NCBI RefSeq assembly: GCF_000026545.1
Contig: NC_011601.1
Direction: 5' to 3' (one strand)
DNA length: 64,000 nucleotides
Source of the DNA: Escherichia coli O127:H6 str. E2348/69
GTDB lineage: Bacteria > Pseudomonadota > Gammaproteobacteria > Enterobacterales > Enterobacteriaceae
The notes under the pieces were generated by a model. The model did no database searches. It saw nothing but the letters and a program-made list of their open reading frames with translations, and was not told the origin of the DNA. Every line of letters begins with the position of its first letter. Position 1 is the stretch's first letter. The position numbers and the translations under genes were made by a program. Shown in pieces: positions 5,698 to 36,147 of the stretch.

Positions 5698-5772
5698 ATG
5701 TAAGGTGATTGCGAAAATCCCCGCATCTTGGGAAACTGCGCGTAACCCTACATTTCATCCAGGTAACTTTTC

Positions 5773-6120
5773 ATGGCTATAATCCCAAAAAACTATGCGC
5801 GGTTAGAAAGCGGCTATCGCGAAAAAGCATTAAAAATCTATCCGTGGGTCTGCGGTCGCTGTTCTCGCGAGTTTGTTTATTCCAACCTGCGTGAACTTAC
5901 CGTTCACCACATTGATCACGACCATACCAATAACCCGGAAGACGGCAGTAACTGGGAGTTATTGTGTCTTTATTGCCACGATCACGAGCATTCAAAATAT
6001 ACCGAAGCAGATCAGTATGGTACGACCGTTATCGCAGGGGAAGATGCGCAGAAAGATGTCGGTGAAGCGAAGTACAACCCATTCGCTGACCTGAAAGCGA
6101 TGATGAACAAGAAGAAGTGA
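5773..6120 (+). CDS. yajD: HNH-nuclease-family protein YajD
   Basis: 115-aa ORF with paired HH/CxxC HNH motifs, recognised as YajD. Confidence 0.9.
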   Translation: MAIIPKNYARLESGYREKALKIYPWVCGRCSREFVYSNLRELTVHHIDHDHTNNPEDGSNWELLCLYCHDHEHSKYTEADQYGTTVIAGEDAQKDVGEAKYNPFADLKAMMNKKK

Positions 6121-6125
6121 TAAAA

Positions 6126-6150
6126 AATGCCGGATATGAAATCCGGCATT
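6126..6150. terminator. bidirectional hairpin between convergent yajD and tsx
   Basis: inverted repeat aatgccggat / atccggcatt between the two stop codons. Confidence 0.6.
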
Positions 6151-6157
6151 CTCACAA

Positions 6158-7042
6158 TTAGAAGTTGTAACCTACTACCAGGTAACCACCCCAGCCGGTA
6201 GAGCGAACGTTGAAGTTGCCGTTGCCGAAGTTCAGTTCTGCATCGTCGTTCCACTGACCACCGTCGTGCCAGTAACGAGCTACGACAGAGTAGTGCCAGT
6301 GATCGTAGTTCAGAGCCAGAATATGGCTGGAAGCGATGGAGTTATTGGTACGGGTCTTAATACCGTTGATTGCATTACCGCTGTCATCCCCTAAATCGGA
6401 ACCCCAGTCGAAGTTGGTGAAGCCGATGTAGCTCAGCTGACCGCCCCACAGATCGGTAATCGGCACAAAGTATTTAATTTTGAAACGGTAACCGTCCCAC
6501 TCGTTTTCATTCGCTGCGCCATAGTTCTGCCACTGGTATTTCGCATAGACGTTCATGGACAGGCTCATCGGCAGGCCAGTATCGATATCGGTACCCAGAC
6601 CCATGTACCAGGTGCTCTGGCGACCATCTTTATTACGACCCATGTCGTAAATGTAGTTGTTCGCGAAGTACCACTCTTTGAACGGACCAAAGCTAAGGTC
6701 AGTATTGGTCAGCTTGTCGATGGAGAAACGTGGTTCGATTTCCATAAACAGCGGAGAACCGTGGTTCCAGATACCTTTTGCATCGGAGTTACCGCCGAAG
6801 AATACCGGCGCATCCGCATAACCATAGAAGTCGAACCAGTCTTTTTTAGCGAATGCTTCGTACTCAAGGTAGGTATCGTTGCGGATCTGCGGTCCGAAAC
6901 GGGTGTGATAGCTTCCGACAACGTTAACGCTCTGGTGCCACCAGTCGGAAAGATACTGCGGTTTGTCGTTTTCAGCTGCGTTGACAGTAAAAGACGAAGA
7001 GAGCGCCAGTACCGCACCGGCTGCCAGTAATGTTTTTTTCAT
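6158..7042 (-). CDS. tsx: nucleoside-specific outer-membrane channel Tsx
   Basis: ORF 6158..7090; start trimmed to ATG 7042 ([22 protein letters not shown] signal peptide). Confidence 0.93.
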
Positions 7043-7340
7043 ATGTATGCCACTGTTTGAAAATCCCTTGCGGGAGTGAAAAAGGCGCAAATTGCGTTTC
7101 TAAATATTTCGTATACAGAGGAGCCTATTATAAAAATCATTGCTCACAAAAATATGTTTCGTTTCACAGTTCTATCATTTACGTAATCGATTGCGTTCAC
7201 GTTTACACACATTCGGGCGGGGATTGTACTGACTTTCACCCTTGTTGCAAACTTTTACTATCAATCCAGGTGATGTAAGCGGAGTAACAAAATGACGGAG
7301 AAAGATGTTGCGGGACGCACAATATAGCCCCGCAATACGT

Positions 7341-7880
7341 TTACTGCATAACAGGTTGAATGTCGTGGATACGTACAAAGCCTAACTGATCCACAGAAAT
7401 ACCCTTTAACTGTAACGGAATATCAACATTGCTGGGGGCGAGGACGCTGGCAGGTGCGTTAATCAATTGATTCTGCACATTGATTTCCTGAAAGTTGTCT
7501 ATTGTTCCCTGAATTTGCCCATATTCAACGGTTCCGCTGAATGCGGGTAAAGGGTCATTAGATTCGCCCTGAATACGTAGCGTCAGGGTGGTGCCATCTG
7601 TATCAGGCGTAATATTCACCAGCGACATACGTAAAGTACCGATCTGGCTTTCCAGTCTTGCTGGTGTTTTTGCTCCAGGCAGAAGGTAAACCCCACTGCT
7701 GGATTTTGCATTCAGCCTGTTTTGCTGAGTGATTTTGACCGTTTCTTTATTGAGCTGCGTCATCTCCTGGTTCAGCGTGCTGACGCTGTGTTTCATCTGT
7801 CGCACTTCACTTTGCTGCACACAGGCGCTAAGGCTGAACAGGCTTCCCAGCAGGAGCAGTCGAAAAACGTTAGTATTCAT
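7341..7880 (-). CDS. yajI: lipoprotein YajI
   Basis: ORF 7341..7940; start trimmed to ATG 7880 (MNTNVF... signal peptide with lipobox LSAC). Confidence 0.85.
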   Translation of the reverse strand: MNTNVFRLLLLGSLFSLSACVQQSEVRQMKHSVSTLNQEMTQLNKETVKITQQNRLNAKSSSGVYLLPGAKTPARLESQIGTLRMSLVNITPDTDGTTLTLRIQGESNDPLPAFSGTVEYGQIQGTIDNFQEINVQNQLINAPASVLAPSNVDIPLQLKGISVDQLGFVRIHDIQPVMQ

Positions 7881-7994
7881 AGGTCGTCCCTTTCTCGTCG
7901 CAATTAGCCTAATGGTAGAGGGTAAAAGCAGTGAAAGCATCGATCCTTTATCTCAAAAGCGTTGCGCCTTTGTTGTATCGTCAGTTCAGGGTAA

Positions 7995-8480
<486 letters not shown>

Positions 8481-8483
8481 GCC

Positions 8484-9587
8484 GTGCAGGACGAGTATTA
8501 CATGGCGCGGGCGCTAAAGCTGGCGCAACGAGGACGTTTTACCACGCATCCCAACCCGAATGTCGGGTGCGTCATTGTCAAAGATGGCGAAATTGTCGGT
8601 GAAGGTTACCATCAACGAGCGGGTGAACCGCATGCCGAGGTACACGCGTTGCGCATGGCCGGCGAAAAAGCCAAAGGCGCAACGGCGTATGTCACACTCG
8701 AACCCTGTAGCCATCATGGTCGTACGCCACCGTGTTGTGATGCGTTAATTGCTGCGGGCGTGGCGCGCGTGGTTGCTGCAATGCAAGACCCCAATCCGCA
8801 GGTCGCTGGACGTGGACTTTACCGTTTGCAACAGGCTGGCATTGACGTCAGCCACGGGCTGATGATGAGTGAAGCTGAGCAATTGAATAATGGCTTTCTC
8901 AAGCGGATGCGCACCGGCTTTCCTTATATTCAGTTAAAACTTGGCGCATCGCTTGATGGTCGCACGGCGATGGCGAGTGGCGAAAGCCAGTGGATCACTT
9001 CACCTCAGGCGCGACGCGACGTACAACGACTGCGCGCGCAAAGTCATGCCATTTTAACCAGCAGCGCCACGGTGCTGGCGGATGATCCAGCCTTAACAGT
9101 GCGTTGGTCTGAACTGGATGAACAAACTCAGGGGCTCTACCCGCAACAAAATCTCCGTCAGCCGGTACGTATTGTGATTGATAGCCAAAATCGCGTGACG
9201 CCGGAACATCGCATTGTGCAGCAGCCCGGCGAAACCTGGTTCGCGCGTACTCAGGATGATTCTCGTGAGTGGCCGGAAACGGTGCGTACCTTGCTGATTC
9301 CAGAGCATAAAGGTCATCTGGATCTGGTTGTACTGATGATGCAACTGGGTAAACAGCAAATTAACAGCATCTGGGTGGAAGCGGGGCCAACGCTCGCTGG
9401 CGCATTGCTACAGGCGGGGTTAGTCGATGAGCTGATTGTCTATATCGCACCTAAACTATTAGGCAGCGACGCCCGTGGATTATGCTTGCTGCCAGGGCTT
9501 GAGAAATTAGCCGACGCCCCCCAATTTAAATTCAAAGAGATACGTCATGTAGGCCCGGATGTTTGCCTGCATTTAGTGGGGGCATGA
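8484..9587 (+). CDS. ribD: riboflavin biosynthesis deaminase/reductase RibD
   Basis: 367-aa ORF with GTG start, recognised as RibD. Confidence 0.93.
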
Positions 9588-32329: not shown

Positions 32330-33604
32330 ATGACAGATAAACGCAAAGATGGCTCAGGCAAATTGCTGTATTGCTCTTTTTGCGGCAAAAGCCAGCATGA
32401 AGTGCGCAAGCTGATTGCCGGTCCATCCGTGTATATCTGCGACGAATGTGTTGATTTATGTAACGACATCATTCGCGAAGAGATTAAAGAAGTTGCACCG
32501 CATCGTGAACGCAGTGCGCTACCGACGCCGCATGAAATTCGCAACCACCTGGACGATTACGTTATCGGTCAGGAACAGGCGAAAAAAGTGCTGGCGGTCG
32601 CGGTATACAACCACTACAAACGTCTGCGCAACGGAGATACCAGCAATGGCGTCGAGTTGGGCAAAAGTAACATTCTGCTGATCGGTCCGACCGGTTCCGG
32701 TAAAACGCTGCTGGCCGAAACGCTGGCGCGCCTGCTGGACGTTCCGTTCACCATGGCTGACGCAACCACGCTGACCGAAGCCGGTTATGTGGGCGAAGAC
32801 GTTGAAAACATCATTCAGAAGCTGTTGCAGAAGTGCGATTACGACGTACAGAAAGCGCAGCGCGGGATTGTCTACATCGATGAAATCGACAAGATTTCTC
32901 GTAAGTCAGACAACCCGTCCATTACCCGAGACGTTTCCGGTGAAGGCGTACAGCAGGCACTGTTGAAACTGATCGAAGGTACGGTAGCTGCTGTTCCGCC
33001 GCAAGGTGGGCGTAAACATCCGCAACAGGAATTCTTGCAGGTTGATACCTCTAAGATCCTGTTTATCTGTGGCGGTGCGTTTGCCGGTCTGGATAAAGTG
33101 ATTTCCCATCGTGTAGAAACCGGTTCCGGCATTGGTTTTGGCGCGACGGTAAAAGCGAAGTCCGACAAAGCAAGCGAAGGCGAGCTGCTGGCGCAGGTTG
33201 AACCGGAAGATCTGATCAAGTTTGGTCTGATCCCTGAGTTCATTGGTCGTCTGCCGGTTGTCGCAACGTTGAATGAACTGAGCGAAGAAGCTCTGATTCA
33301 GATCCTCAAAGAGCCGAAAAACGCCCTGACCAAGCAGTATCAGGCGCTGTTTAATCTGGAAGGCGTGGATCTGGAATTCCGTGACGAGGCGCTGGATGCT
33401 ATCGCTAAGAAAGCGATGGCGCGTAAAACCGGTGCCCGTGGCCTGCGTTCTATCGTAGAAGCCGCACTGCTCGATACCATGTACGATCTGCCGTCCATGG
33501 AAGATGTCGAAAAAGTGGTTATCGACGAGTCGGTAATTGATGGTCAAAGCAAACCGTTGCTGATTTATGGTAAGCCGGAAGCGCAACAGGCATCTGGTGA
33601 ATAA
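32330..33604 (+). CDS. clpX: ATP-dependent Clp protease ATP-binding subunit ClpX
   Basis: 424-aa ORF with N-terminal zinc-binding CxxC pairs and Walker A GPTGSGKT. Confidence 0.96.
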
Positions 33605-33679
33605 TTAACCATTTCCATACAATTAGTTAACCAAAAAAGGGGGGATTTTATCTCCCCTTTAATTTTTCCTCTATTCTCG

Positions 33680-33712
33680 GCGTTGAATGTGGGGGAAACA
33701 TCCCCATATACT
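33680..33712 (+). promoter_or_regulatory. sigma-32 heat-shock promoter of lon
   Basis: -35-like gttgaa and -10 ccccatat with ~13-nt spacing, matching the sigma-32 consensus CTTGAAA/CCCCATnT, ~80 nt upstream of the lon ATG. Confidence 0.6.
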
Positions 33713-33792
33713 GACGTACATGTTAATAGATGGCGTGAAGCACAGTCGTGTCATCTGATTACCTGGCGGAAATTAAACTAAGAGAGAGCTCT

Positions 33793-36147
33793 ATGAATCC
33801 TGAGCGTTCTGAACGCATTGAAATCCCCGTATTGCCGCTGCGCGATGTGGTGGTTTATCCGCACATGGTCATCCCCTTATTTGTCGGGCGGGAAAAATCC
33901 ATCCGTTGTCTGGAAGCGGCGATGGACCATGATAAAAAAATTATGCTGGTCGCGCAGAAAGAAGCTTCAACGGATGAGCCAGGTGTAAACGATCTTTTCA
34001 CCGTCGGGACCGTGGCCTCTATATTGCAGATGCTGAAACTGCCTGACGGCACCGTCAAAGTGCTGGTCGAGGGGTTACAGCGCGCGCGTATTTCTGCGCT
34101 CTCTGACAATGGCGAACACTTTTCTGCGAAGGCGGAGTATCTGGAGTCGCCGACCATTGATGAGCGGGAACAGGAAGTGCTGGTGCGTACTGCAATCAGC
34201 CAGTTCGAAGGCTACATCAAGCTGAACAAAAAAATCCCACCAGAAGTGCTGACGTCGCTGAATAGCATCGACGACCCGGCGCGTCTGGCGGATACCATTG
34301 CTGCACATATGCCGCTGAAACTGGCTGACAAACAGTCCGTTCTGGAGATGTCCGACGTTAACGAACGTCTGGAATATCTGATGGCAATGATGGAATCGGA
34401 AATCGATCTGCTGCAGGTTGAGAAACGCATTCGCAACCGCGTTAAAAAGCAGATGGAGAAATCCCAGCGTGAGTACTATCTGAACGAGCAAATGAAAGCT
34501 ATTCAGAAAGAACTCGGTGAAATGGACGACGCGCCGGACGAAAACGAAGCCCTGAAGCGCAAAATCGACGCGGCGAAGATGCCGAAAGAGGCAAAAGAGA
34601 AAGCGGAAGCAGAGCTGCAGAAGCTGAAAATGATGTCTCCGATGTCGGCAGAAGCGACCGTAGTGCGTGGATATATCGACTGGATGGTACAGGTGCCGTG
34701 GAATGCGCGTAGCAAGGTCAAAAAAGACCTGCGTCAGGCGCAGGAAATCCTTGATACCGACCATTATGGTCTGGAGCGCGTGAAAGATCGTATCCTTGAG
34801 TATCTTGCGGTTCAAAGCCGTGTCAACAAAATCAAGGGACCGATCCTCTGCCTGGTAGGGCCGCCGGGGGTAGGTAAAACCTCCCTGGGTCAGTCCATCG
34901 CCAAAGCCACCGGGCGTAAATATGTCCGTATGGCGCTGGGCGGCGTGCGTGATGAAGCGGAAATCCGTGGTCACCGCCGTACTTACATCGGTTCTATGCC
35001 GGGTAAACTGATCCAGAAAATGGCGAAAGTGGGCGTGAAAAACCCGCTGTTCCTGCTCGATGAGATCGACAAAATGTCTTCTGACATGCGTGGCGATCCG
35101 GCCTCCGCACTGCTTGAAGTGCTGGATCCAGAGCAGAACGTAGCGTTCAGCGACCACTACCTGGAAGTGGATTACGATCTCAGCGACGTAATGTTTGTCG
35201 CGACGTCGAACTCCATGAACATTCCGGCACCGCTGCTGGATCGTATGGAAGTGATTCGCCTCTCCGGTTATACCGAAGATGAAAAACTGAACATCGCCAA
35301 ACGTCACCTGCTGCCGAAGCAGATTGAACGTAATGCACTGAAAAAAGGTGAGCTGACCGTCGACGATAGCGCCATTATCGGCATTATTCGTTACTACACC
35401 CGTGAAGCGGGCGTGCGTGGTCTGGAGCGTGAAATCTCCAAACTGTGTCGCAAAGCGGTTAAGCAGTTACTGCTCGATAAGTCATTAAAACATATCGAAA
35501 TTAACGGCGATAACCTGCATGACTACCTCGGTGTTCAGCGTTTCGACTATGGGCGCGCGGATAACGAAAACCGTGTCGGCCAGGTAACCGGTCTGGCGTG
35601 GACGGAAGTGGGTGGTGACTTGCTGACCATTGAAACCGCGTGCGTTCCGGGGAAAGGTAAACTGACCTATACCGGTTCGCTCGGCGAAGTGATGCAGGAG
35701 TCTATTCAGGCGGCGTTAACGGTGGTTCGTGCGCGTGCGGAAAAACTGGGGATCAACCCTGATTTTTACGAAAAACGTGATATCCACGTCCACGTACCGG
35801 AAGGTGCGACGCCGAAAGATGGTCCGAGTGCCGGTATTGCCATGTGCACCGCGCTGGTTTCTTGCCTGACCGGTAACCCGGTTCGTGCCGATGTGGCAAT
35901 GACCGGTGAGATCACTCTGCGTGGTCAGGTACTGCCGATCGGTGGTTTGAAAGAAAAACTACTGGCAGCGCATCGCGGCGGGATTAAAACAGTGTTAATT
36001 CCGTTCGAAAATAAACGCGATCTGGAAGAGATTCCTGACAACGTAATTGCCGATCTGGACATTCATCCTGTGAAGCGCATTGAGGAAGTTCTGACTCTGG
36101 CGCTACAAAATGAACCGTCTGGCATGCAGGTTGTGACTGCAAAATAG
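33793..36147 (+). CDS. lon: ATP-dependent protease Lon
   Basis: ORF 33748..36147; start at ATG 33793 ([26 protein letters not shown]...) for 784 aa. Confidence 0.95.

Follow-up and report, generated by a model that had tools for sequence, protein, structure and literature searches.

The clpX–lon Intergenic Region

The sequence analyzed here, referred to as the window, is a stretch of 64,000 nucleotides from E. coli; its positions 33400-34000 match the EPEC O127:H6 E2348/69 chromosome at 100% identity. The RefSeq annotation of the identical DNA names the two flanking genes clpX and lon (endopeptidase La). The upstream gene, clpX, runs from 32330 to 33604 on the plus strand in the open reading frame list and is followed on the same strand by the 784-codon lon coding sequence (33793..36147), which was placed by the open reading frame list, the RefSeq annotation, and the locus comparison. 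The promoter and the palindrome described below are located in the 188-bp spacer between the two genes. The N-terminal 300 amino acids of Lon are 100% identical to those of E. albertii Lon. We also considered a 799-amino acid open reading frame beginning with GTG at 33748 as the lon start; it was rejected as a mere mechanical upstream extension, and the lon ATG was kept at 33793.

Downstream of clpX, an inverted repeat with 11-nt arms forms a G+C-rich hairpin at 33636..33660 (AAAGGGGGGAT/ATCTCCCCTTT) with A-runs and T-runs on either side. This hairpin was scored as an intrinsic terminator on both the plus and the minus strand, that is, as a bidirectional terminator, and on the plus strand it terminates clpX.

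A separate small overlapping palindrome, TTAGTTAAC/GTTAACCAA with GTTAAC, is present at 33623-33634, just past the clpX stop codon, and is probably the product of chance.

A σ32-type Promoter Upstream of lon

The promoter region reads gcgTTGAATgtgggggaaacatCCCCATATactgacgtaca, with gcgTTGAATgtgggggaaacatCCCCATATactgacgtac at positions 33680-33719. The consensus −35 element of σ32 promoters is 5'-CTTGAA-3' (PMC10216364), and a match to it, gTTGAAt, spans 33682-33688. Within this stretch, TTGAAT (33683..33688, plus strand) constitutes the −35 element, which could also be used as a −35 by σ70. The σ32 −10 element, CCCCATAT, occupies 33702..33709 on the plus strand, and its CCCC forms the right arm of the palindrome. 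Expected of a σ32 promoter are a −10 element of the type CCCCATNT and 13–15 nt between TTGAA and CCCCAT; here, the gap from TTGAAT to CCCCATAT is 13 nt, corresponding to the geometry TTGAA-N14-CCCCAT. The same 14-nt gap is found in dnaK P1, whose consensus scaffold in the σ32 open-complex structure is CTTGAA-GACGTGGTTTACGA-CCCCATTTA (PMC10216364). The initial annotation had matched gttgaa (33682-33687) and ccccatat to the −35 and −10 consensus of σ32 with appropriate spacing, and our reading of the sequence agrees with it on both counts.

A pattern search of the 64-kb window for TTGAA-N13-15-CCCCAT returned one occurrence versus 0.13 expected, so the σ32 motif exceeds chance expectation. The locus is that of the E. 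coli lon (capR) σ32 promoter, which belongs to the classic heat-shock promoters along with dnaK P1, groE, htpG, and others, and it shows no difference from it other than belonging to another strain. The classic papers on lon and heat-shock promoters are Phillips 1984, Goff 1984, Gayda 1985, Cowing 1985, Chin 1988, and Nonaka 2006.

The promoter scan also detected a σ70-type −10 hexamer, TATACT (33707..33712, plus strand), which overlaps the σ32 −10 element and lies 18 nt from TTGAAT. The pair TTGAAT-18-TATACT, with a score of 9 out of 12, is the sole σ70-like promoter that the scan found in 33400-34000.

The complementary strand was also inspected for a σ32 promoter, reading CCCCACAT as its −10 element. 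This candidate was dropped, as inspection by eye showed nothing resembling a TTGAA −35 element at the appropriate spacing on that strand.

Conservation of the Promoter and Divergence of Its Spacer

We compared 80 lon loci, one genome per species, from the Enterobacterales, Vibrionales, Aeromonadales, and Alteromonadales. TTGAA-N14-CCCCAT was present upstream of lon in 66 of the 80 loci, with a gap of exactly 14 nt in every one of them, and this fixed-spacing motif is kept across the Enterobacterales, Vibrionales, and Aeromonadales.

Information content was calculated from the 63 distinct lon-upstream sequences. TTGAA and CCCCAT served as the search anchors, so that every aligned locus contains them by construction; the values that follow are for positions outside the anchors. 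The T after TTGAA carries 1.72 bits, and the unselected flank ATACT after CCCCAT carries 0.9–2.0 bits, with 1.88 and 2.0 bits for the A and T that follow CCCCAT directly. Spacer positions 8–12, which hold a run of G residues in the window, carry only 0.05–0.17 bits. Only this window and E. albertii have a run of at least four G residues in the spacer. The spacers of Citrobacter, Enterobacter, Phytobacter, and their relatives contain GTGTGGG, and those of Yersinia, Pectobacterium, Erwinia, Photorhabdus, Vibrio, and Aeromonas are unrelated.

Within E. coli, K-12, O157, B, and the present O127:H6 strain share the same 80-bp lon promoter, and these 80 bp are unchanged in 5,405 of the 5,425 records of the species. 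Such invariance is compatible with constraint, but little variation is also to be expected over such a short distance in a single species.

Transcription Start Sites and Sigma Factor Use

Transcription start sites mapped in K-12 were converted to window coordinates by equating the K-12 lon ATG (458112) with position 33793. Kim et al. (2012) placed the lon start at 458039, equivalent to A33720, with a 73-nt untranslated region; they print the upstream sequence as TCTATTCTCGGCGTTGAATGTGGGGGAAACATCCCCATATACTGACGTACA and report the same geometry in Klebsiella. Cho et al. (2014) give 458037, equivalent to A33718, with 1744 reads, and record sigma factor ChIP at this start as “DH” (σ70 and σ32), with “binding + motif” also DH. 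The lon starts thus lie at 33718..33720 on the plus strand. The K-12 cultures behind these maps were not specifically heat-shocked, and a heat-specific start a few nucleotides away is possible; the start at 33720 lies 10 nt beyond CCCCATAT, which is a better fit to the σ70 −10 than to the σ32 −10.

According to a review, lon expression in E. coli is σ32-dependent. Because the overlapping σ70-type TTGAAT-18-TATACT is accompanied by ChIP signals for both factors, the lon promoter is a dual promoter that serves σ32 and σ70. The proposal of a lon heat-shock promoter at this position is therefore upheld by the dnaK P1-like motif and spacing, by the conservation upstream of lon, and by the start sites and in vivo occupancy published for the identical K-12 sequence.

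The GC Palindrome within the Promoter

The G5 run at 33691..33695 (plus strand) lies in the promoter spacer, is Escherichia-specific, and forms the left arm of the palindrome. The sequence from 33691 to 33705 is gggggaaacatcccc; adding t33690 and a33706 produces perfect 5-bp arms 7 nt apart, that is, TGGGG-N7-CCCCA at 33690..33706, with no strand assigned. The initial annotation had described an inverted repeat at these coordinates overlapping the −10 element, and both the coordinates and the overlap, which is through the right arm, proved correct. Having arms of only 5 nt, the palindrome was missed by an inverted-repeat search seeded at 6 nt. Sites of the form GGGG-N3-7-CCCC occur once in the window versus 2.06 expected; the palindrome is no commoner than chance.

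The two arms have different origins. The right arm is the CCCC that is obligatory in strong σ32 −10 elements, whereas the left arm, a G5 run, originated in the freely varying spacer of the Escherichia lineage. We infer solely from its absence in other genera that the G-run may be without a role in lon transcription. A modulatory effect on the lon promoter in Escherichia is possible, since both the spacer and the “extended −10” region are contacted by σ32 (PMC10216364).

A dyad in a promoter spacer might be an operator, bound between −35 and −10 by a dimeric transcription factor or by Lon itself to modulate lon. The symmetry is indeed centered in the spacer, and the promoter is nearly invariant within E. 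coli. The spacer reads TGTGGGGG, and E. coli Lon reportedly binds TG-rich DNA. However, the half-sites are not conserved together where the promoter is kept: the left one is not retained beyond Escherichia, and the right one is fully explained by σ32. Moreover, the arms are merely a 5-bp G/C homopolymer, the motif frequency is not above chance, and the literature examined mentions no regulator that binds at the palindrome. We consider an operator very improbable. The suggestion in the initial annotation of a protein-binding site consequently fails for a conserved operator; it holds for another protein, the transposase of IS186, as described below.

The same annotation had raised a cruciform or hairpin. 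In such a model, the palindrome would extrude as a cruciform, or as a hairpin in melted DNA, and tune promoter opening in response to, for example, supercoiling or temperature. A hairpin can be drawn, extended by imperfect pairs between ATGTGGGG and CCCCATAT (7/8), and the 37-nt DNA hairpin has a predicted energy of −5.5 kcal/mol; however, this is no better than shuffled sequences (z = −1.75; 15/200 shuffles fold at least as well). Palindromes that extrude in vivo have long, near-perfect arms and a short center and are far longer than this one, for which perfect 5-bp arms around a 7-nt center are far too short. The other genera lack the left arm but retain the promoter and its spacing. Given the short arms and the weak fold, extrusion from the DNA appears extremely improbable, although a hairpin may hold in an RNA from the opposite strand, which is discussed with SraA below.

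IS186 Insertion at the Palindrome

IS186 targets GGGG(N6/N7)CCCC, of which only 54 sites exist in K-12 (Lee et al. 2016, PMC5009759). The sequence GGGGGAAACATCCCC (33691-33705) fits both the N6 and the N7 form of this rule, and no other site of this kind occurs in the window.

In BL21(DE3), a 1,339-bp IS186, labeled by PGAP as “IS4-like element IS421 family transposase,” is inserted between clpX and lon. Its junctions read ...TGGGGGAAACATCC|CATAAGCGC...GCGCTTATG|GGGAAACATCCCCATAT..., from which we deduced that 11 bp, GGGAAACATCC (equivalent to 33693..33703), are duplicated on either side of the element. The insertion is inside the palindrome and parts the −35 from the −10 element.

We surveyed the 601-bp clpX–lon segment in ~5,425 complete E. 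coli genomes and found 56 records without an uninterrupted segment. The full junction of flank and IS in the BL21 orientation was present in 45 genomes, 4 further BL21 derivatives matched it with 73% coverage, and the full junction in the opposite orientation was present in 7 genomes. Thus, every one of the 56 interrupted genomes (45 + 4 + 7) has IS186 at the palindrome, and all BL21/B strains are among them. Most of the 56 are B-lineage laboratory strains that share one ancestral insertion. The insertion was also found in strains outside the B lineage, namely JM109, HB101, two derivatives of MG1655, and several isolates of clinical or environmental origin (NDM6, DX6, XH2172, FAHZZU7007, H32, and 2020N08-094). 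Because both orientations occur, IS186 must have inserted here several times independently.

In the 4 BL21 derivatives with partial coverage, BL21(RP), Rosetta2-DE3, BL21-RIPL, and one BL21(DE3), the junction match extended only to query position 162 of 221, which suggests a difference at the IS end or an assembly artifact.

A separate copy of IS186 lies in a yfjI-family gene (NZ_CP027701.1, 1810-1830 and 3165-3180) at GGGGGAGATTTCCCC. The G5-N6-C4 geometry and the cut positions are the same as those at lon. The two sites are so similar that the BLAST alignment ran on through the target.

These observations agree with the literature. Several papers, citing SaiSree et al. (2001), describe the lon promoter as “a hot spot for IS186 insertion” and insertion there as the basis of the Lon deficiency of E. 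coli B. Spontaneous insertions are reported at one site, in either orientation, and Lon protein drops after insertion; BL21-type strains are described as Lon-deficient owing to IS186 in the lon promoter. One recorded insertion, “clpX/lon intergenic (+88/−100), IS186 +12 bp,” corresponds to window position 33692/33693, and IS186 in the lon promoter leads to mucoidy and raised IS-mediated mutagenesis, with precise excision possible (PMC3861542).

An Antisense Match to SraA

The minus strand of the same region matches the Rfam family sraA (RF02029), an antisense sRNA, over its full length at 33625..33721, with 105 bits against a gathering threshold of 56 (E = 7e-19). This would offer the palindrome a different role, as the 5' stem-loop of SraA (minus strand, from ~33721 to ~33625), in which the G-run would be kept to pair with the GGGG that complements the σ32 CCCC. 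The model consists of two hairpins. The first (5') has an inner stem U-GGGG/CCCC-A and a 7-nt loop and is the palindrome on the other strand; the second is the terminator hairpin at 33636-33660, which would terminate SraA on the minus strand. The minimum-energy fold of the 97-nt minus-strand RNA (−28.2 kcal/mol, z = −2.36, 3/200 shuffles as good) includes the GGGGA/UCCCC hairpin, and of 20 Enterobacterales loci scanned, 15 exceed the gathering threshold of the model. The literature lists SraA between clpX and lon, describes it elsewhere as overlapping lon, and reports that it is detected under all conditions.

However, the 95-nt model combines the clpX terminator with the lon promoter, each of which is conserved for plus-strand reasons. 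Homology and score are therefore unable to separate SraA from the promoter, the 15 of 20 matches can be ascribed to plus-strand constraints, and the conservation of the Rfam model should not be taken as independent evidence of an sRNA. We found 0 base pairs with changes on both sides, that is, no compensatory change. Being the σ32 −10 element, the 5' arm does not vary, which makes the shuffle control uninformative, and we therefore do not regard the hairpin as supported. The inner helix is paired in just 66.9% of cells, with single G positions at 45–73%, where by our estimate ~50% pairing is expected if half of the opposing bases are pyrimidines, and its middle pair is broken by the Citrobacter-type spacers. 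In addition, the promoter scan detected no minus-strand σ70-like promoter in 33400-34000, the section of the Cho et al. (2014) table around lon lists no minus-strand start, and the RefSeq records of MG1655 and W3110 contain no sraA feature.

SraA (psrA3/t15) is thus matched here in full, but the promoter and terminator that overlap it confound the evidence for its structure. We know of no function for SraA. The minus-strand match could give the G-run a function, and a role of the palindrome in SraA would be the main rival, or complement, to its explanation by promoter and IS186; we regard it as possible but doubtful.

The lon Promoter as an IS186 Hotspot

Taken together, we estimate a probability of roughly 90% that 33683-33720 is the single, well-characterized lon promoter of E. 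coli and that the palindrome is an IS186 hotspot. Both the promoter and the hotspot are already known, and nothing new is added to them by this region. The present analysis shows the motif with its spacing and conservation, the lack of conservation of the G-run, and the precise insertion site with its recurrence in genomes; the binding of σ32 and σ70, the start sites, the disappearance of Lon once IS186 has inserted, and the rule for IS186 targets are taken from published work.

According to this reading, RNA polymerase carrying σ32 recognizes TTGAA(T) and CCCCATAT, 14 nt apart, and the overlapping σ70-type −10 element TATACT provides basal lon expression. Transcription from A33718/A33720 produces a 5' untranslated region of ~75 nt ahead of the lon ATG at 33793. 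The palindrome is no separate regulatory device for lon. Rather, G4+-N6/7-C4 is the exact DNA chosen by the IS186 transposase, and it is this match to the target choice that makes the promoter an IS186 hotspot. Insertion duplicates ~11 bp and moves the −35 and −10 elements 1.3 kb apart, and lon expression is thereby abolished. This lesion renders E. coli B and BL21 Lon-deficient, and it recurs under selection for mucoidy, antibiotic tolerance, or the rescue of unstable proteins.

A stretch of 15 bp in this manner accounts both for the missing Lon of BL21 and other B-derived expression strains and for the ease with which lon-null mutants arise during experimental evolution, under antibiotic selection, and when strains are constructed. 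When such strains are sequenced, IS186 is to be expected at precisely this place.

The G-run might, in addition, have been selected in Escherichia, either as a reversible IS186 “contingency” switch for Lon or as the stem of the SraA 5' hairpin, or as both. It is near-invariant in E. coli and absent outside Escherichia, insertions have occurred repeatedly and in both orientations, and precise excision has been reported (PMC3861542). If there were such a switch, entry of IS186 would deprive the cell of Lon and lead to mucoidy, drug tolerance, and more frequent transposition, and the element could later excise precisely. Lee et al. leave open whether IS186 target sites are selected for (PMC5009759), and we consider selection of the G-run for these purposes quite improbable.

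Returning to the hotspot, the sequence in the window is the same as the published one, which is occupied in the 56 complete genomes, whereas here the site is empty and represents a potential target. The intact site means that this EPEC strain has a normal lon promoter. A search with a chimeric query revealed one additional IS186-like place in each of three E2348/69-type records; because the strain thus appears to carry one IS186-like copy elsewhere, the empty site may be a live IS186 target in E2348/69.

Finally, we noticed an unusual record among the E. coli sequences. The 128.8-kb circular “plasmid” NZ_CP137697.1 of isolate FELIX_MS533 is the chromosomal segment from lon to hokE, closed at an IS186 (region 5756-9494 of the record), and the clpX-side junction remains on the chromosome (NZ_CP137696.1). 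We take the repeat pair of this circle to be the pair reported to drive amplifications of the acrAB region.
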